A stretch of DNA of 62,468 bases, taken from contig JBILPB010000003.1 of assembly GCA_044374175.1 (NCBI GenBank), positions 1-62,468 of the forward strand, read 5' to 3'. Under the pieces are notes generated by a model. That model was not told where the DNA came from. It searched no databases and saw only the letters and a program-made list of their open reading frames with translations. The translations under genes were made by a program, and so were the position numbers. This document shows, piece by piece, positions 1-7,962 of this stretch. How positions within the stretch are numbered: position 1 is the first letter of the stretch; every line of letters begins with the position of its first letter. The stretch comes from Bacteroidia bacterium. Its GTDB lineage: Bacteria > Bacteroidota > Bacteroidia > UBA4408.

Positions 1-2
1 AT

Positions 3-917
3 TTTGATGAATTATACGCCTTAATTGAACTTTCCGACAATTTAACTAAAAAACCAAGAGTGGCCATTAGAGTTAATATGGATACAGGCATCTATCCTAT
101 GTGGGATCGTTTTGGTTTTAATTATGAGAACGGCACTGCCTGGAATGCCATTACCAAAATTGTTGCTTCTGGAAAACTAAATCTGGTGGGCCTTCATTGC
201 CACATTGGCACCTATATGCTCGCACCTTGGGCCTATGCAACGGCAGCATCAAAGTTGTGTGACCTTGCATGGCATGCAAAAAATCAATTAAACAATCCAG
301 TTCAGTACCTAGATCTTGGAGGTGGTTTTCCGAGCGCTAATACACTTAAAGGAGCCTATTTACCTGGCTCAGATACTGTGCCTCATATTGAAGAATTTGC
401 CGAAGCTATTGCAAGCACAATTATAGCTTATGGCTTTAAACCAGACGAATTGCCTTTGCTTATTTTAGAGAGTGGTAGAGCATTGATTGATGATGCAGGA
501 TATTTATTAGGAACTATTTTAGCCAACAAAAGGTTGAGTGATGGCCGAAGAGCAACTATCTTAGATTTTGGTGTAAATATACTTTTTACCTCATTTTGGT
601 ACGACCATAAAATTAGTCCTGCGCAAGATTTTACGCATCACTCCGAAGATCAGGTTTTATATGGACCACTTTGCATGAACATTGATGTTATTAGAGAAAG
701 TGTAAATTTACCACTTTTAAATAAAGGAGATCAAGTGGTAGTGCATAAAGTTGGGGCCTACAACATGACACAATGGATGCAATTTATTGCGATGAGACCA
801 AATGTGATTATGATTGATACCAAGGGAGAAACGCATTTAATTAGAAAAAAAGAAACATTGCAATATTTAGAAATGCCCGAAGAAATGCCATTGCACTTGA
901 AAGAGTTTAAATTATAA
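3..917 (+). CDS. Fold-type III PLP-dependent decarboxylase (DAP/Orn/Arg decarboxylase family), 5'-partial
   Basis: Frame is open from position 3 (FDELYALIELSDNLTKKPRVAIRVN), so the true start lies upstream of the window. Motifs GLHCHIGT, LDLGGGF, ESGR, GPLC..D and VGAY are present. Confidence 0.9.
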   Translation, partial: FDELYALIELSDNLTKKPRVAIRVNMDTGIYPMWDRFGFNYENGTAWNAITKIVASGKLNLVGLHCHIGTYMLAPWAYATAASKLCDLAWHAKNQLNNPVQYLDLGGGFPSANTLKGAYLPGSDTVPHIEEFAEAIASTIIAYGFKPDELPLLILESGRALIDDAGYLLGTILANKRLSDGRRATILDFGVNILFTSFWYDHKISPAQDFTHHSEDQVLYGPLCMNIDVIRESVNLPLLNKGDQVVVHKVGAYNMTQWMQFIAMRPNVIMIDTKGETHLIRKKETLQYLEMPEEMPLHLKEFKL

Positions 918-927
918 CTAGTAAAAA

Positions 928-3102
928 ATGATTAAGAAAAAAGCAGGATTTATTTTTGAAGGCGTAATCAACAGTTACTCTGTCTTGTTTTTTTCTAATC
1001 ATAAGGTATTTGCATACTTATTACTGGTTATAAGCTTTTTTAATCCTGCTGCTGGTTTAGCTGGTTTAATAGCTGTTTTAACTGCGGTTTTTACAGCAAC
1101 TACAATGGGATTTAATGCAGCATCAACCAAAGCAGGTTTTTATAGTTTTAATGCTTTGCTTATAGGTATTGGTTTGGGTTCTTTTTTTGAAAGTTCTCCT
1201 GTGTTTTTCTTCTTATTAATTTTAGCATCTTTATTTACTTTGGTGCTATCGGTTACGCTAAGTGGTGTTTTAGGAAAATATGGCTTACCTTTTTTATCTA
1301 TTCCCTTTATTACTACTTTTTGGATACTCCTTCTGGCCACCAAAGAGTTCAGCAATTTGGGATTGAGTCAGAGAAATATTTATTGGATCAATGAAATGTA
1401 TGCTGTTGGGGGTAAACCCTTGTTAAGTTTATTTAATAGCATCGAAAATATTCCTATTCCAAAATGGCTCTCTACCTATTTCAGAGCCTTGAGTTCCATC
1501 TTTTTTCAGGATAATATTTTAAGTGGTTTTTTACTTTCGATAGGCATTTTAGTTTACTCAAGAATTGCCTTTTCACTCAGTTTAATTGGCTTTTTTGGGG
1601 CTTATTTGTTTAACGATTTTACTGGTGCCTATGAGGCTGGCATCAACTCCTATCATTTGGGTAGTAATTACATGATGACAGCCATGGCAATAGGTGGTTT
1701 CTTTGCTATACCGAGCTTCTATAGTTATATATGGGCATTTTTTAGTGTTCCCATTACTAATATTTTGGTGATTGCCCTCTCAAAAGTTTTTGGGGTTTTT
1801 GCTTTGCCTATTTTCTCGTTACCATTTTGCATCATGATTTTGTTGTATTTATACTTTTTAAAAATGCGAATTTTAGCAGGAAAATTGGTTCTAACACCCA
1901 TTCAACATTACTCTCCAGAAGTTAATTTATATCAGTTTAAAAATGGCAGTGAGCGGTTAAAAAATGAATATTATTTTAAATTTAATTTGCCTGTGATCGG
2001 AGAATGGGCAGTTACACAAGGTTATGATGGAAACATTACCCATAAAGATGATTGGAGCAAGGCCTTAGACTTTATGATTTTAGATCAACAACTTAAATCA
2101 TTTTCTGGCAACGGAACCGCACTTGAAAATTTTTACAGCTATAACAAACCCGTATTGGCCGCGGGAGATGGCTATGTGCAGGAAATTGTAGACTATATTG
2201 AAGATAATCCAATTGGAGAAATTAACAGAGAACAAAATTGGGGAAATTCAATAATATTGTATCATTCCATAGGTTTATTTTCAAAGTTATCGCATCTTAA
2301 GAAAAACTCATTTATTGTAAAGCAAGGCGACTACGTAAAAAAGGGACAAGTGCTTGCTTATTGCGGTAATTCTGGAAGATCACCTGAACCACATTTACAT
2401 TTTCAAATTCAATCAGCACCTTATATTGGCAGTAAAACACTGGCTTATCCAATCAGTTATTTTTATCAGAGTGATGGAAAAGACATTCAATATCTAACAT
2501 TTTCTACTCCTCAAGAAGGCAGCTTTGTTGCAAATATCAATATCAACAAATTATTGCATCAAGCATTTGCCTTCCAACCAGGATATAGTATTAAATATAA
2601 AGAAGGAAACACGATTGAAACGTGGACTGTGTTCACTGATGCCTACAATCAAACCTATATTAGTTGTAAGGAAAACAACGCGGTAGCCTACTTTGTAAAC
2701 AATGAAACTGTTTTTTATTTTACTAACTTCTATGGAAGTAAAGCCTCCATATTGTATCAATTTTATTTATCTATATTTAAAGTTGTATTGAGTTACATGC
2801 CGCAAGTTATCATCAACGATGTGCTTCCATTAAGTATGGTGCAAGCGCCTTTTGTAAAATTAATACAAGATTTTGTGGCTCCGTTTGTGCAACTTATAAA
2901 ACCAAAGTACACGTTAAATTATACAAGTATAGATGATGAACATTTTACTTCTGAAATAACGCTTGAATCTATAATTGAGATTGACGCTATGGGTTATAAA
3001 AGTGTTTTCAGAACTAGCCAAATAATTTTAAGCAATGGAAAATTAAATCAATTAGTGATTAATCAAGCTGGCAAGGAGAGAGTTTTTACATGTATAGATT
3101 AG
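928..3102 (+). CDS. Urea transporter (UT) family membrane domain fused to an M23 metallopeptidase domain and a C-terminal extension
   Basis: The first ~310 aa are hydrophobic with duplicated UT-like halves (GFYSFNALLIG/PFLSIPF and GSNYMMTAMA/PIFSLPF). They are followed by M23 motifs: HKDDWSKALDF, VLAAGDG, NWGNSIIL, SHLKKNS..VKQGDYVKKGQVLAYCGNSGRSPEPHLHFQ. Confidence 0.85.
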   Translation: MIKKKAGFIFEGVINSYSVLFFSNHKVFAYLLLVISFFNPAAGLAGLIAVLTAVFTATTMGFNAASTKAGFYSFNALLIGIGLGSFFESSPVFFFLLILASLFTLVLSVTLSGVLGKYGLPFLSIPFITTFWILLLATKEFSNLGLSQRNIYWINEMYAVGGKPLLSLFNSIENIPIPKWLSTYFRALSSIFFQDNILSGFLLSIGILVYSRIAFSLSLIGFFGAYLFNDFTGAYEAGINSYHLGSNYMMTAMAIGGFFAIPSFYSYIWAFFSVPITNILVIALSKVFGVFALPIFSLPFCIMILLYLYFLKMRILAGKLVLTPIQHYSPEVNLYQFKNGSERLKNEYYFKFNLPVIGEWAVTQGYDGNITHKDDWSKALDFMILDQQLKSFSGNGTALENFYSYNKPVLAAGDGYVQEIVDYIEDNPIGEINREQNWGNSIILYHSIGLFSKLSHLKKNSFIVKQGDYVKKGQVLAYCGNSGRSPEPHLHFQIQSAPYIGSKTLAYPISYFYQSDGKDIQYLTFSTPQEGSFVANININKLLHQAFAFQPGYSIKYKEGNTIETWTVFTDAYNQTYISCKENNAVAYFVNNETVFYFTNFYGSKASILYQFYLSIFKVVLSYMPQVIINDVLPLSMVQAPFVKLIQDFVAPFVQLIKPKYTLNYTSIDDEHFTSEITLESIIEIDAMGYKSVFRTSQIILSNGKLNQLVINQAGKERVFTCID

Positions 3103-4298
3103 CAATCATCATATGGTTTTGTTTAAGTTGTGTAAGCTCGGTAAGTAGTCAGCAGATTACCTATGGCTATTTTGATAGTTTAAGCTATGCACAATATGTG
3201 GCGGGCGATTGGGATCATTTATTGCAAACTGCTGAAATTGCCAAAAATGCCGATATCAGTTTTCCTTTGTTAAGTATGAGAATAGGTTATGCTGCCCTAA
3301 TGAAAGGCAATAATAGTTTATCATTAAAGCATTATTCAAACGCTTTGGAATTTGATAGTTATAATCAAGATGCACTTTATTATGCTGTGCTCAACAATAC
3401 CTTACTTTCGAGAAGAGATGCTGCATCGTATATTTCTTTAAATTTAAATGATGCTATCAAAAAGCCATTAAATGTGGGATATAAAAAGTTGGTAGAAATA
3501 ATAGATATAGAATTGAGCTTTAAGTCTACCAATAATGAAACGCGTAAGCTAGGTCAATACTATAGGTTTGGCATTGGAAATAGAATTAATTACCGTTGGA
3601 AACTTTATCATAGCTTTATAACCTACAGACAGAATTTATTAGAGCCTAAAACTAATCAGAGAAATGCTGGTCCTCCAAACAGAAACGCACCAATAAGTTT
3701 TAGAAGTTTCTTAACACATGATTATCAATACTTTTTAAAATCTGAAGTATGTATAAATTCTAAATTCTCATTGACTAATGCATTTCATTACACACATACT
3801 AATTTTGATGATGCAACTTATAATACCTATATTTTTAATATTGGGCTTAAAATAACACAACCATTTATTGATTATAAAATTGAGTTAAACGCAGGTCCAA
3901 TGCTTGATTCATTGCTAGCTCAAGTGGCAGTATCATCGACATACCAGCCATTTGGAAATTTAATTTTTTATGGAAACAGTAGATTGAGTTTTCAAAAAAG
4001 AACCCACCAATCTCAACTTAATTTTTCGCAAATGCTTGGGTTTAAACTTAGTAATAAATTATGGTTAGAAACACATGCTACACTTGGACAAATAAAAAAC
4101 TTAATTGACAACGATGCCCTTTATATTTACGATGCACTTGATGCTGGTAAATTTAGAATTGGGGCAAGCCTATTGATACCTTTTACACCAAAACTTACCT
4201 TCCAAGGAAATTATTATTTCGAACCAAAAATACTATATTTACAAAACAACATTTACAATTTAAATTCATTTACATTAGGAATATCATGGAAACTATAA
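3090..4298 (+). CDS. Secreted protein with N-terminal TPR-like helices and a probable C-terminal outer-membrane beta-barrel
   Basis: Signal peptide, a TPR-like segment (RIGYAALMKGNNSLSLKHYSNALEFDSYNQDALYY), alternating aromatic beta-strands in the C-terminal part, ending GISWKL. Confidence 0.55.
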   Translation: MYRLAIIIWFCLSCVSSVSSQQITYGYFDSLSYAQYVAGDWDHLLQTAEIAKNADISFPLLSMRIGYAALMKGNNSLSLKHYSNALEFDSYNQDALYYAVLNNTLLSRRDAASYISLNLNDAIKKPLNVGYKKLVEIIDIELSFKSTNNETRKLGQYYRFGIGNRINYRWKLYHSFITYRQNLLEPKTNQRNAGPPNRNAPISFRSFLTHDYQYFLKSEVCINSKFSLTNAFHYTHTNFDDATYNTYIFNIGLKITQPFIDYKIELNAGPMLDSLLAQVAVSSTYQPFGNLIFYGNSRLSFQKRTHQSQLNFSQMLGFKLSNKLWLETHATLGQIKNLIDNDALYIYDALDAGKFRIGASLLIPFTPKLTFQGNYYFEPKILYLQNNIYNLNSFTLGISWKL

Positions 4299-4906
4299 AA
4301 AAAATATTCATTGCTTTTGCAATTATTAGTGTTCAAAATTATGCATTTGCGCAAACAGAAGTGGCGCAGCAAAAAGCCTTTTCGGCCAGTTATATAGCAG
4401 AAGGAAAATATAATTATACTGAAGCCATTACCCAAATAAACAATGTTTACTTAGAAGGAAATTATGAAATGAATTTGCGTTTAGGTTGGCTAAATTACTT
4501 GACAAAGAATTATACAAATGCTATTAAGTATTATGAAAAAGCTACCACTTTAAAACCTTATGCTATTGAAGCAAAATTTGGTTTAATAAAGCCATTAGCA
4601 GCTTTAGAGAGTTGGGATAAGGTGATTAAGCAATATGAATCTATACTTATTATTGATCCGCAAAGCACTGTTGCTAATTACTACTTAGGTTATGCTCTTT
4701 ACAACAGAAAACAATATGAAACTGCCAGTAAGCACTTTGAGAAGGTGGTAAATCTTTATCCTTTTGATTATGACAATTCTATTATGTTGGCCTGGACTTA
4801 TTTTCGTTTAGGCAAAAATAATGAAGCTAAAGTGCTTTTTAATAAAGTGCTATTGATGAGCCCAAATGATGCATCGGCTTTAGAGGGATTAGCATCTTTT
4901 AAATAA
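4286..4906 (+). CDS. Exported tetratricopeptide-repeat protein
   Basis: Signal peptide (AFA-Q) and several TPRs, e.g. ANYYLGYALYNRKQYETASKHFEKVVNLYP. Confidence 0.85.
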   Translation: METIKKIFIAFAIISVQNYAFAQTEVAQQKAFSASYIAEGKYNYTEAITQINNVYLEGNYEMNLRLGWLNYLTKNYTNAIKYYEKATTLKPYAIEAKFGLIKPLAALESWDKVIKQYESILIIDPQSTVANYYLGYALYNRKQYETASKHFEKVVNLYPFDYDNSIMLAWTYFRLGKNNEAKVLFNKVLLMSPNDASALEGLASFK

Positions 4907-4964: not shown

Positions 4965-5405
4965 TTATTGTTTAAATCCTACAAGTACAGCAGCACAACC
5001 TACTTTACTTATTTCATTTGATGCCTTAGCGGCAGTAGGTATAATAACCACTACCTTCATTTGTTGAGTACTAGCTACTTCAAATTCCCAAAACTTTGCG
5101 AAGTTGTGATCTTTGTTATCGAAAACAAGTTTGTTCTTGTTATCAAAAACTTGAAATTGTGCTTTTCCTATAGATTCTTGAGAGCAAATAAGCAAACGAT
5201 AACTCATTCCCGAGTAAAAGGTTAAATCTAATTCTGCCTCTTCGCCTGGCGCCATCTGTTGAATATTTAACTGGCCATTATGAGTGAAAGGATTTAATTC
5301 TGGCATACAAGTTTTTTTTGCAAACTGGTTGCACTGTGCTTTTGAAAGGCCCGAAAATCCAGTAAGAAGGAAAATCGAAAATAATATCTTAAATGTTGTT
5401 TTCAT
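4965..5405 (-). CDS. Hypothetical secreted protein with four Cys and a beta-rich fold
   Basis: Signal peptide ending SKA-Q, 146-aa ORF, co-oriented with the upstream lipoprotein. Confidence 0.75.
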   Translation of the reverse strand: MKTTFKILFSIFLLTGFSGLSKAQCNQFAKKTCMPELNPFTHNGQLNIQQMAPGEEAELDLTFYSGMSYRLLICSQESIGKAQFQVFDNKNKLVFDNKDHNFAKFWEFEVASTQQMKVVVIIPTAAKASNEISKVGCAAVLVGFKQ

Positions 5406-5423: not shown

Positions 5424-6314
5424 CTAACTAATTATCATTGTTCTAATCGCTGTAATTTTTTTGGTAATTTCAGCAAGCTGAGCGGGTGTTAAAGTTAACT
5501 CGCCTGAAGAACCAATAACTGTTTTTTGTGCAGCAGCATCAGTTTTAACTTCGGCAGGAGGTACATCTGTCATTTTTACATTATCATATATCGTTTTCAA
5601 TGCTTTTAACTCTGTCATCATTTCTGGCGCATTATCATTAGCTTGATTAGTCTCTAACAATCCAATAAGGTTTTCTAAGATTAATTTTTGTTCTGCAATT
5701 CTCTTAACAATCATTTGATTGTTAGCATTTGATGATGCAATATTTACAGAAATATATAAGCCTTCGATCCAACCACCTGCAACCACTAATGCAGAAACAC
5801 CAGCGCGATCATTATTTTTTAAATAAATATCTGTTTCAAGGTAGGTATCAGAAATAATCTTTAACAATGAATCTTTGTTGTTTAGATTTTTCTCCATACG
5901 TTTTACTGTATTTTCGTTGATAGCGCCAGTAATACCTAAACCATCAGCCAATTTTTTACAAACACCCATGTAAACTATAGCTTCTTGGGTTTGATCGAAA
6001 GTGCTGGTATAACTAAGATCGGCTCCAAAAACACCAAGATTCATAGCCTTTTGAATAATTGATGTGTATTTAGCTTCGTTAGAGGCCGGATTCAACATGT
6101 TTTTATTGTAGTTTGCACCAGTTGCCTTAATCATTGCCGACAACTCGCTAGGAGATGGCACTGCATAAAATACTTTAGCAACTTTGTTTTTACTTTCAAT
6201 TGCTGCTGGATCTACATCTTCTGTATCCGACTTAGAACCATTATTACAAGCAAATAATGATGAAATAATTGCCAAAGCAATTACAAAATTTAATTTAGCA
6301 CTTAACCACTTCAT
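5424..6314 (-). CDS. Hypothetical helical lipoprotein
   Basis: Lipobox LFAC after a hydrophobic leader; 296-aa ORF. Confidence 0.8.
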   Translation of the reverse strand: MKWLSAKLNFVIALAIISSLFACNNGSKSDTEDVDPAAIESKNKVAKVFYAVPSPSELSAMIKATGANYNKNMLNPASNEAKYTSIIQKAMNLGVFGADLSYTSTFDQTQEAIVYMGVCKKLADGLGITGAINENTVKRMEKNLNNKDSLLKIISDTYLETDIYLKNNDRAGVSALVVAGGWIEGLYISVNIASSNANNQMIVKRIAEQKLILENLIGLLETNQANDNAPEMMTELKALKTIYDNVKMTDVPPAEVKTDAAAQKTVIGSSGELTLTPAQLAEITKKITAIRTMIIS

Positions 6315-6459: not shown

Positions 6460-7962
6460 ATGCAAATAATTTTTGCCATACTTTTTGCAAGCGCTTTGGC
6501 TTGTTTGATCGTCAATTGGAGATTATTTAAAAATAAAAGGTTTAGCTCAACAACTTTTTGTGGCCTTTTTATTTTAAAACTGTTTTTTGGTGTTTGTTTT
6601 TATCTGGTATATACAGCCTATTATAGCAACAATCAAACAAGCGATATGCATAAGTACTATAATGATGCTGTAAAAATTTTTGAGCTTACAAAGGAAAATC
6701 CACGGTCATATTTGAGTATTTTAACTGGTCTTGAAATTGATTACAAAGATGAAATAATTACCCAACAGCTCAATTTTTGGTATCAAGAAGAAAGTGCCTC
6801 AGTTATTAATGACTCAAGAATGGTTATACGATTTAATTTGTTGATGCTTCCTTTGAGCAAAGGTAATATATACCTGCACTTAGTAATGATGGTGTTCCTC
6901 TCATTTATAGGGCTTTTTCTAATTTATTTAGGTTTTGAGAAATACTTCATGGAGAGTGAAATTTTACTGCTAATTTCATGTTTTGGAATACCTTCTGTTA
7001 TGTTTTGGTCATCGGGCATTATGAAAGAAGGCTTATTGATATTTTTCTTTGGCTTATTGATTTATACCCTATTTATCATCCAAAAAAAATCGCTCCGAAG
7101 GGTTGTATTATTTTTGCTCTCTATTGTGGGCCTATTTTTCGCAAAATTCTATGTCGCGCTTTCCCTCATCCCGTCCTTACTTTTCTTGTTTATTGGATCA
7201 ATAAATAAAACAAAATCAACATTATGGCAGCTCGGTTTAACTTGTATAATTGTTGTTTTTAGCGCCATAGGCTTTAATACCCTATTCAACAATGAGCCAC
7301 TCCAAAAATTATCTAAGAAGCAAAACGATTTTATTAACCTTTCTATTGGTGGCGTTTACCTGGCCAATACACAGTATCCGTATGATACTATTTTTACATT
7401 AAAGCCAAGTTCACTTCATAGTTTAACCGTCATAACAGAAGGAAAAACAGCTAAGCTTAAACCAGGAACGATTTATCATCATTGGAAAAACCCCGGTTAT
7501 GCAGATACATTGGTGGCTAACAAGAAACTCAATTTATATACTGTACTTAAAGTACTTGAACCAACAGGAAGTGCAATATCGCTCAAACGTTTAATGCCAA
7601 ACTATATAAGTGTAATAAAACTGTTTCCCGAAGCTTTTATGAATGTTTTTTTCAGACCATTTATATTTGATGTTGAGAATTTTTTCTCCTTATTTGCTTG
7701 CATTGAAAACATCGCATTATTGCTGCTTTTTATTTTTATGATTTGGAAGTATAAAAAGCCCGAAAGCAGTATTCAAAGCGTAATTATTTTTTCTTTTTTA
7801 TTTGTGTTTACACTCTACACCCTTGTTGGCTTAACTACTCCAGTATTAGGAGCAGCGGTAAGGTATAAAGTGCCTGCACTACCCTTTTTATTGATAAGTA
7901 TATTTTTACTTATTGACTTTACTAAATACAAGGTTTATTTCAATTTAATAAACAAGAAATGA
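6460..7962 (+). CDS. Polytopic membrane protein, possibly a GT-C-like glycan polymerase/transferase
   Basis: About 11-12 hydrophobic segments, an acidic early loop (QTSDMHKYY), a WSSGIMKE motif and C-terminal GAAVRYKVP. Confidence 0.55.
   Translation: MQIIFAILFASALACLIVNWRLFKNKRFSSTTFCGLFILKLFFGVCFYLVYTAYYSNNQTSDMHKYYNDAVKIFELTKENPRSYLSILTGLEIDYKDEIITQQLNFWYQEESASVINDSRMVIRFNLLMLPLSKGNIYLHLVMMVFLSFIGLFLIYLGFEKYFMESEILLLISCFGIPSVMFWSSGIMKEGLLIFFFGLLIYTLFIIQKKSLRRVVLFLLSIVGLFFAKFYVALSLIPSLLFLFIGSINKTKSTLWQLGLTCIIVVFSAIGFNTLFNNEPLQKLSKKQNDFINLSIGGVYLANTQYPYDTIFTLKPSSLHSLTVITEGKTAKLKPGTIYHHWKNPGYADTLVANKKLNLYTVLKVLEPTGSAISLKRLMPNYISVIKLFPEAFMNVFFRPFIFDVENFFSLFACIENIALLLLFIFMIWKYKKPESSIQSVIIFSFLFVFTLYTLVGLTTPVLGAAVRYKVPALPFLLISIFLLIDFTKYKVYFNLINKK

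Follow-up and report, generated by a model that had tools for sequence, protein, structure and literature searches.

The window analysed here is a 62,468-nucleotide stretch from a Bacteroidia bacterium (contig JBILPB010000003.1) that comprises one whole contig (G000:C58) of its genome. Near its start, at positions 928..3102 of the + strand, lies a single ATG-start open reading frame (ORF) of 724 aa plus stop, which encodes a membrane domain with the urea-transporter (UT) fold, an M23 metallopeptidase domain and a further C-terminal domain. This UT–M23 fusion is an old and widespread architecture and no artefact, with hundreds of full-length relatives, mostly in Bacteroidota. The fusion gene belongs to a cassette with the order PqqD-like protein, ATP-grasp ligase, decarboxylase, UT–M23 fusion and, usually, a barrel-like ORF and a tetratricopeptide repeat (TPR) protein. 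The UT plus M23 architecture is already in print, and what is new here is its gene context and its orientation. A 2026 paper in Biology Direct places M23 among the domains found C-terminal to UT in bacteria, with 69 UniProt proteins, and models one UT–M23 protein to which, in its account of that model, no function is assigned (PMC12998343).

Domain architecture and family of the fusion protein

The UT membrane domain (964..1857, + strand; residues 13–310) has a duplicated 2 × 5-helix fold and was delineated by Pfam and by a whole-genome scan. The match to PF03253 (E 3e-55, 187.9 bits against a cut-off of 25) covers 287 of 292 profile positions. The closest solved structure for this half is Desulfovibrio dvUT (PDB entries 3K3F/3ME1, E 3.5e-20), and residues 45–145 align to dvUT residues 212–313 as well as to their own half, which reflects the internal duplication. 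The Pfam span and the cross-repeat match bear out the original prediction, made from the sequence letters, of a complete duplicated UT domain. A basic linker (1858..1983, + strand; residues 311–352) follows, with a near-invariant SPE motif.

Conservation was assessed in an alignment of 112 sequences, comprising the query and 111 of the best 150 matches (about 696–763 aa, with the match starting near the N-terminus); 38 shorter or N-terminally cut entries and the 1305-aa protein P0192 were omitted. A second set comprised the translated fusion genes of 90 of 104 fetched loci in which the gene was near full length, the remaining 14 being cut by contig ends. Residues P330 and E331 of the linker are at least 90% conserved in the 112-sequence alignment, and the natural splits and frameshifts of fusion genes fall in the linker.

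The M23 domain (1984..2439, + strand; residues ~353–504) was identified by a match to PF01551 at residues 403–495 (E 6.1e-16, 58.8 bits against a cut-off of 28.7) and gives profile matches to 31 solved M23 sequences, the best being 6JMX (2.6e-11). Translation of 2041..2070 (+ strand) gives the first metal motif, HKDDWSKALD, in which H372 and D381 lie nine positions apart with KDDWSKAL between them, that is, H(x)8D. The HxH motif, H489-L-H491, is encoded at 2392..2400 (+ strand), within PHLH at 2389–2400. The spacing of nine and the intact HxH had both been read correctly from the sequence at the outset. His456 (2293..2295, + strand) occupies the site of the accessory catalytic histidine, His260 in LytM, with the role given to that residue in the part of a review of M23 enzymes that deals with it (PMC9662197). 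The protein thus has the Pfam score and the H(x)nD, HxH and accessory-histidine motifs of family M23.

All five residues, H372, D381, H456, H489 and H491, are invariant in the 112 aligned family members and in the 90 translated locus genes, and exactly eight residues separate the His from the Asp in 90/90 locus genes, a spacing that is likewise fixed in 112/112. Features of this kind are far from what chance would give. Conservation along the protein peaks in the M23 domain, where the mean major-residue frequency is 0.59; it is 0.42 in the UT domain and 0.32 in the C-terminal part. The invariance of the active site argues for catalysis rather than a relic, and the domain appears to be catalytically intact.

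The original prediction had singled out the first motif as stretched. The formal M23 motif, H(x)nD, has a spacer of variable length: among the examples that the review gives for it, n is 12 in LasA and 7 in phi29 gp13 (PMC9662197). A standalone 341-aa M23 lipoprotein of another genome (L027; G189:C5, 3686–4711; lipobox LFSSC) has H(x)10D; it shares 35% identity with fusion residues 354–535, and an insert of ~20 residues after the Asp is common to both. Since n reaches 12 in the family and 10 in this relative, the H(x)8D spacer is, on sequence comparison, a subfamily trait within the known M23 range, with no sign of degeneration. A lipoprotein of this type may be the periplasmic ancestor of the fused M23 domain. 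A related M23 match was also seen at ~4168–4620 of another locus (L028; G073:C3).

The C-terminal domain (2440..3099, + strand; residues 505–724) has no sequence relative in Pfam at E ≤ 5 or, by a 13-sequence profile, in the PDB at E ≤ 10, and a feature-based comparison with the ESM Atlas gave a best score of 0.80, which is the chance level. An extra domain at this position had been anticipated, and its presence stands; its size, put at about 190 aa, is ~220 aa. A weak BLAST segment had made a second, degenerate M23 domain a candidate here; this was rejected, as hhalign shows just a trivial 15-residue alignment overlap.

The junction between the UT and M23 parts (nt ~1855–1985) is bridged by Logan contigs from four runs of four different studies, with 95–100% likeness at the locus: X2 record 5 covers 860–1986, X3 record 13 covers 1648–2527, X4 record 19 covers 1799–3147, and X6 record 22 (6,972 nt) covers 1–4203 and extends past the window start. 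A word-index search returned 2513 proteins at E ≤ 1e-3 among 7996 candidates scored. PF01551 and PF03253 occur together in 118 of the 120 best matches listed, at about 720–750 aa, and the source names of the matches are 'urea transporter' or 'urea transporter/murein DD-endopeptidase', from Bacteroidia, Bacteroidales, Prolixibacteraceae and Ferruginibacter. An exhaustive search of 1.84 billion representatives gave 14476 matches at E ≤ 1e-3 and 691 at E ≤ 1e-30. The 111 aligned relatives range from 47% down to 27% identity to the query. The age and spread of the architecture follow from the contigs of four studies, the many full-length relatives and this range of identities, which also dispel the concern, raised with the original prediction, that the fusion might be missing from independent genomes.

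Among 201 Bacteroidota genomes, drawn evenly, 16 contain a UT domain. Fourteen of these 16 UT genes are fusion frames (521–769 aa), one is a two-ORF form (G016) and one is a plain UT (G137), so that 15 of the 16 are fused to, or directly followed by, an M23 module; this sample contradicts the premise that a UT channel is normally a standalone protein. A query with the M23 and C-terminal parts matched 18 of 41 relatives (G000 included), all in frames of 724–759 aa; by rank, the other genomes with a match were 15 of 24 from the same family and 5 of 7 from the same genus. Few database entries match one half alone (181 and 55), and these are mostly on short contigs or marked partial.

The two-ORF form lies in a single-contig genome, where a UT ORF of 358 aa overlaps, by 4 nt at the linker, an M23/C-terminal ORF of 393 aa that starts with TTG (L122 1411–2487 and 2484–3665; L133, G016:C1, 8016–10144). 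The PqqD, ATP-grasp and decarboxylase genes are still found upstream, and no barrel-like or TPR homologue was found downstream. This is the sole clean 4-nt-overlap split among the short forms checked. A Runella locus (L022) that had looked like a second clean split is a frameshift in an A7 run (1230–1260) exactly at the UT/M23 linker; the 368-aa M23 entry derived from it (P0279) is present on 8 contigs, which may reflect a true shift in that lineage or repeated assembly of the same data. A short fusion of 521 aa (L032; G089:C21, 8197–9762) stops just past the M23 domain and keeps H(x)8D. A longer form also occurs: P0192, of 1305 aa, matches query residues 11–652 and has an extra part of ~600 aa. 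The plain UT (L132; G137:C6, 9372–10791) has 273 aa and scores 241.5 bits to Pfam UT. It adjoins a TMEM175-type potassium-channel gene, a TonB-dependent receptor and an AraC regulator, with no adjoining urease; because it too is not next to urease, it is uninformative as a standalone-UT control.

The conserved cassette and its enzymes

Directly upstream of the fusion gene is the 3' part of a gene for a FigC-like pyridoxal phosphate-dependent decarboxylase of the Orn/DAP type (3..917, + strand), which ends 10 nt before the fusion. Window positions 1–127 are identical to the last 127 bases of another contig of the same genome, C138 (L005 14822–14948), from which it follows that C58 and C138 abut and that the decarboxylase gene is split by an assembly break. 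The 5' part of that gene and the other upstream members of the cassette lie on C138 in the same direction: an 80-aa PqqD-like protein (L005:13023–13262; PF05402, E 1.2e-12) and an ATP-grasp ligase (L005:13284–14339; PF15632, PF02655). The original prediction missed these upstream genes, which are the decisive context and for the most part are encoded outside the window. Downstream, a 402-aa secreted protein with a helical N-terminal part and a β-rich C-terminal part (3090..4298, + strand) overlaps the fusion gene by 13 nt. It has a signal-peptide-like N-terminus and a β-amphipathic pattern from residue ~120 on, is probably an outer-membrane barrel, and has no Pfam or PDB sequence match. It overlaps by 13 nt a gene for a 206-aa secreted TPR protein (4286..4906, + strand; TPR_2, E 1.1e-19), which also has a signal-peptide-like N-terminus.

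The gene order is conserved far beyond this genome. In 20 loci of species-representative genomes, the decarboxylase is directly upstream of the fusion in 19, and the 20th, a contig of 1,986 nt, is too short to include it. The ATP-grasp gene is present in 14 of these loci and PqqD in 13, every miss being a contig end except at one locus (L012); the 402-aa ORF is matched in 16, and L015 has a positional equivalent beyond the reach of tblastn. In 80 metagenome loci with 39–52% identity, the fusion has the decarboxylase as its neighbour in 53 of the 54 that offer room; counted likewise, the figures are 50 of 51 for ATP-grasp, 49 of 50 for PqqD, 54 of 54 for TPR and 55 of 63 for the barrel-like ORF. 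The sole decarboxylase miss (L058) is a gene whose 5-nt overlap with the fusion failed the adjacency criterion, and a single locus (L105) is the exception for both ATP-grasp and PqqD. A four-gene core is kept in three of four very divergent Bacteroidota genomes, at 29–35% identity (L029, L030 and L031); the fourth is that of the short fusion (L032). The neighbours are more conserved than the fusion itself, with median identities in the metagenome loci of 70.7% for the decarboxylase and 67.9% for ATP-grasp against 46.6% for the fusion. In the open-access literature, no paper was found on this cassette, on a product of it or on the combination of urea transporter, M23 and ATP-grasp.

A full-length decarboxylase orthologue has as its best PDB match FigC, the N-citrylornithine decarboxylase (7KH2, E 1.4e-52), followed by the true DAP decarboxylase LysA (5e-43) and by BtrK (3.5e-21). 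Its NCBIfam scores for FslC (210.4, cut-off 500) and LysA (217.8) are both below cut-off, and the two families are not told apart by these scores. The FigC clade, with SbnH, AcsE, MccE and BtrK, is described, where PMC7857480 treats these relatives, as decarboxylases of conjugated substrates and not of free amino acids. The presence of an ATP-grasp ligase beside a decarboxylase that may be of the conjugate type suggests an order of ligation, then decarboxylation. The bond that several M23 cell-wall enzymes (DD-endopeptidases) cut joins an acyl group to the distal amine of a diamino acid, and by analogy the ligase could make a bond of this type. About 25 residues precede the catalytic fold of the decarboxylase (L005:14380–14460); this extension is strongly conserved in 72 aligned sequences, with a consensus like M.KL.YE.P.I.K.N.G.MNKFGT, and would be compatible with a role as partner of the PqqD-like adaptor.

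A PqqD-type adaptor normally implies a peptide-like partner or substrate, and in lasso-peptide systems such an adaptor occurs with a leader peptidase and an ATP-dependent amide-forming enzyme. The cassette might therefore be read as a maturation system for a peptide that is made on the ribosome and modified after translation (RiPP), in which PqqD would present a short ribosomal peptide whose gene lies elsewhere or escapes detection by its small size, the ATP-grasp enzyme and decarboxylase would modify it, M23 would be the leader or processing peptidase and the UT domain would serve mainly as a trimeric anchor. Apart from its PF05402 match, the PqqD-like protein points this way through its best NCBIfam profile, the lasso-peptide PqqD chaperones, although its 30.9 bits fall short of that cut-off (70), and it reaches none of the NCBIfam cut-offs for PqqD subfamilies. 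According to the section of PMC7857480 on this clade, MccE, which is related to the decarboxylase, acts on a peptide conjugate, and in 21 of 59 loci the gene immediately ahead of the PqqD-like one, in the same orientation, is that of a LytTR-type response regulator. Against this, no conserved ORF of at least 10 codons was found in or around the cassette in 66 loci, in a search that left shorter ORFs and distant genes outside; the genes upstream of PqqD vary; and the conservation of the UT fold signature, given below, suggests more than an anchor. We consider RiPP-like maturation unlikely.

The stretch upstream of PqqD, compared in 14 loci, showed no conserved small ORF. Recurring small-ORF clusters were considered as precursor peptides and discarded; they are the ends of LytTR-regulator or GNAT genes, or antisense shadows. 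A LysW-like role for the PqqD-like protein as a C-terminal carrier was ruled out, as its C-terminus is not conserved in 13 orthologues (LLEF, LLEL, LLTS, LLNA and LLHN, among others).

In 13 of the 59 loci, the gene that immediately precedes the PqqD-like one in the same orientation encodes a GNAT acetyltransferase; these include L019, L021 and L025, and the loci with the LytTR regulator include L016, L017 and L020. In this genome, the gene upstream of PqqD encodes a PlsC-type acyltransferase (L005:12060–12815). Past the TPR gene are two secreted proteins without a Pfam match (4965–5405 and 5424–6314, both − strand) and a 500-aa multi-pass membrane protein (6460–7962, + strand); these genes are taken to lie outside the cassette because they are conserved in the closest relatives only (L006, L007 and L010). 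Ahead of the cassette, no riboswitch or known RNA was found in 8 loci, the hits being just an unrelated S-adenosylmethionine (SAM) riboswitch and transfer-messenger RNA (tmRNA). In the window, 36 promoters were predicted against 31.3 ± 5.2 in shuffled sequence, with a consensus unsuited to Bacteroidota, and 2 terminators against 3.5 ± 2.1, neither being above control. PADLOC gave no defence match for any of the six cassette proteins.

Membrane orientation and pore of the UT domain

The UT fold consists of two inverted halves (Pa, T1a–T5a; Pb, T1b–T5b), and the T5a–Pb loop is periplasmic, according to the portion of PMC4357013 that cites the Levin structures. From the periplasmic loop and the inverted symmetry, both UT termini are therefore expected on the opposite side. 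Query residues 9–339 align with the whole UT domain of UT-A (residues 580–902 of a 910-residue chain), up to the C-terminal tail, so that no additional membrane pass is expected. A charge census over the 112 sequences gave a net charge of +1.62 at residues 1–28, +0.38 at 60–76, +0.83 at 112–122 and +3.09 in the linker segment 310–350 (K+R 6.29 against D+E 3.20), and of −0.99 in the central loop 138–198 and −1.00 at 231–245. Separately encoded M23 halves (P0442, from G016; P0280; P0274; P0288) start at the linker without a signal peptide or transmembrane segment, with the proviso that some short separate-M23 entries may be truncated gene calls.

The original prediction left the side of the M23 domain to be settled by topology. 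On account of the UT topology, the positive-inside charges and the signal-less separate halves, we infer that the M23 and C-terminal domains lie in the cytoplasm. The link to peptidoglycan that had been implied is accordingly implausible as far as this placement goes. A search of the open-access literature for cytoplasmic, intracellular or cytosolic M23, or cytoplasmic LytM, found no paper.

With the topology reversed, the M23 and C-terminal domains would be periplasmic and would bind or cut peptidoglycan, as part of an envelope-spanning scaffold with the TPR and barrel proteins. The M23 enzymes treated in the relevant part of the review are cell-wall hydrolases (PMC9662197), the closest non-fused M23 is a lipoprotein with a lipobox, and the downstream partners are secreted; the inverted repeat of the UT fold would also make a flipped insertion conceivable. 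This arrangement is nevertheless quite improbable: the positive-inside bias runs the other way in the linker, the N-terminus and the central loop, the alignment to UT-A leaves no additional transmembrane segment, and the separately encoded M23 halves lack a signal peptide.

The selectivity filter was compared with that of dvUT, in which the Sm site is formed by threonines T130 and T294 and the polar So/Si residues are E187 and Q24, as set out in the filter description of PMC4357013. Positions were mapped through dvUT and family alignments, and the comparison set of canonical UTs is small (n = 8). The hydrophobic wall of the filter is kept in the 112 sequences (L at the L84 position in 96, L at L129 in 95 and F at F190 in 109), and the L247 position has L77/F21/M9. 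The polar residues are replaced. At the E187 position the 112 sequences have A62/S24/T7/G7, with no E or Q among the residues listed, against Q or E in 8/8 canonical UTs, and the 90 locus genes have S45/A43/G1/F1. Q is found at the Q24 position in 66/112 and 15/90, and V or I is often present. The T130 position has S91/T15/A5 and the T294 position has S53/A29/T16/I8/V3 in the 112 sequences, with the same pattern in the 90 loci. In this protein the four residues are S124 (T130), S297 (T294), S190 (E187) and V19 (Q24). The pore residues, whose conservation had been named as a check, thus divide into a hydrophobic wall that is conserved and polar filter residues that are not.

Residues of the UT fold signature are at least 90% conserved (G70, N75, P121, P126, F127, F193, G200, N247 and F300), which suggests a pore that matters and a domain that does more than anchor the protein. 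Selection evidently acts on the pore fold, the predicted chemistry of which is unlike that of urea channels.

These observations bear on the simplest account of the protein, an ordinary uptake channel for urea or small amides, with the M23 and C-terminal module a mere appendage and the neighbouring genes unrelated. The strong Pfam match, the database label 'urea transporter' and the retained hydrophobic wall would fit such a channel. The score against the NCBIfam equivalog for the urea transporter Yut (TIGR03441) is 120.7 bits, however, below the 274.6 cut-off; the residues equivalent to E187 and Q24 have been lost, and Ser or Ala stands in place of the Sm threonines. This genome, 94.7% complete, has no urease alpha domain, no urea carboxylase above cut-off (there were only partial matches of the biotin-carboxylase type) and no second UT gene. 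Urease alpha was matched in one of five other fusion carriers, as a 25-bit match in a 570-aa frame, and the other four were without a match. With the near-absolute synteny with ligase and decarboxylase and the invariance of the M23 active site also against it, an ordinary channel is highly improbable.

A possible exit station and its relation to known systems

The reading that we favour, tentatively and with somewhat less than even confidence, is that the M23 domain cleaves an amide in the product of the ligase and decarboxylase and releases that product at a re-tuned UT channel, the fusion protein acting as an exit (or entry) station. In such a pathway, the ATP-grasp ligase would join a carboxylate to an amino acid, and the decarboxylase, judging by its family, would take the α-carboxyl off the conjugate. 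At the channel's inner mouth, the M23 domain would then hydrolyse an amide of the conjugate or of a precursor bound to the adaptor; the product, a small amine or amide, could leave through the UT pore, whose urea-specific polar residues are replaced, and the TPR and barrel proteins would handle it in the envelope. The direction of transport and all of the cassette chemistry are put forward here on sequence grounds. The gene context and the altered pore residues agree with the suggestion in the original prediction of either a channel whose action is tied to cleavage of a peptide or amide substrate, or a UT fold put to a new use. A more specific form of the proposal, possible though rather unlikely, is an enzyme-gated exit, in which the cytoplasmic M23 domain would cut the last amide of a PqqD-held conjugate and hand a small amine or amide straight to a UT pore re-tuned for it, so that cleavage and passage would be one coupled step.

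Several observations weigh against an exit station. With the hydrophobic wall of the filter retained (the L84, L129, F190 and L247 equivalents), some urea-like passage may remain, and the UT pore is a narrow slot through which only a very small product could pass. The nearest non-fused relative of this M23 subtype is a periplasmic lipoprotein (L027), and the M23 enzymes in the review, in its part on their activities, are cell-wall hydrolases (PMC9662197). A PqqD adaptor is present, and no precursor peptide was found as a conserved ORF of at least 10 codons around the cassette in the 66 loci. Two loci, L012 (2029–3296) and L105 (1–4600), keep the decarboxylase, fusion, barrel-like ORF and TPR with no ligase or PqqD in reach; L012 has a frameshifted decarboxylase and unrelated genes upstream, and L105 has instead a histidine kinase, a deaminase, a formyltransferase and glycosyltransferases. 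Finally, at the locus of the short fusion (L032), ATP-grasp and decarboxylase accompany a UT–M23 gene without the C-terminal domain, and PqqD, barrel and TPR gave no match there. This one locus also hints that the C-terminal domain goes together with the PqqD, barrel and TPR partners.

The same parts could run inwards. UT channels are bidirectional facilitators, and in an import and salvage route the barrel and TPR proteins and the UT pore would bring in a small amide compound, which the cytoplasmic M23 domain would hydrolyse and whose pieces the ligase and decarboxylase would use. A peptidase at the inner mouth would suit capture on entry as well as release, and the two loci without ligase and PqqD keep the fusion, the barrel-like ORF and the TPR gene, together with the decarboxylase. 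In the characterized relatives, however, FigA/FigC, SbnH and BtrJ/BtrK, an ATP-grasp step followed by a conjugate-type decarboxylase has an anabolic logic, as far as the comparison of these pathways in PMC7857480 goes, and the cassette showed no uptake receptor, whether of the TonB type or another. Import and salvage is a distinctly improbable account.

The annotation 'urea transporter' probably misleads inference on the nitrogen cycle from metagenomes, because the fusion is the usual form of the UT gene in Bacteroidota (15 of 16 in the 201 genomes). If M23 is indeed cytoplasmic and at the channel mouth, the M23 family would extend beyond cell-wall hydrolysis, and the protein would be a case in which enzyme and passive channel are coupled. 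An enzyme-gated exit, if true, would be the first case of an M23 enzyme acting inside the cell, and part of a new envelope-spanning small-molecule pathway common in Bacteroidota. The cassette is common in freshwater and soil Bacteroidota, and the identity of its product would open a new piece of bacterial metabolism or signalling.

The membrane half resembles the UT/SLC14 channels (dvUT 3K3F, Yut, UT-A and UT-B) in its fold, inverted repeat, signature residues and hydrophobic filter wall. It differs from them in being fused to M23 and an extra C-terminal domain, in its replaced polar filter, in scoring below the Yut cut-off and in having no urease link. The peptidase shares H(x)nD, HxH, the accessory histidine and a variable spacer with LytM, lysostaphin, MepM/ShyA, LasA and phi29 gp13. 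Unlike the characterized M23 enzymes, it is probably cytoplasmic and is tethered to a channel, and it has the insert of ~20 residues after the Asp that is found in the Bacteroidota lipoprotein too.

The enzymes of the cassette are closest in logic to the rhizoferrin route of FigA/FigC (FslA/FslC) and to SbnH and AcsE, in which ligation precedes decarboxylation (PMC7857480), and FigC is the best PDB match of the decarboxylase. The ligase here is of the ATP-grasp type and not an NRPS-independent siderophore (NIS) synthetase, and the FslC score of 210.4 is below 500. A siderophore receptor is missing from the cassette, which has a PqqD adaptor and the peptidase–channel fusion in addition.

BtrI/BtrJ/BtrK, for the butirosin side chain, and the amino-group-carrier pathway of LysW/LysX/LysK likewise combine an ATP-grasp ligase with a small accessory protein and a modifying enzyme, and BtrK is matched by the decarboxylase at E 3.5e-21. 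The small protein here has the PqqD fold and is neither an acyl carrier protein (ACP) nor a LysW zinc ribbon, and its C-terminus varies, which does not support a C-terminal carrier role. The LysW route ends with release of the product by a metallohydrolase; in the UT–M23 cassette the releasing enzyme would be M23 rather than M20, and fused to a channel. The grouping of B1 (PqqD adaptor), B2 (leader peptidase) and C (ATP-dependent cyclase) in lasso-peptide systems also resembles the cassette, although all of the enzyme families differ and no precursor peptide gene was found in the 66 loci. Finally, peptidase-containing ATP-binding cassette (ABC) exporters have a peptidase physically joined to the membrane exit, as the fusion protein would have; there the export is ATP-driven, whereas the membrane part of the fusion is a passive, narrow channel.

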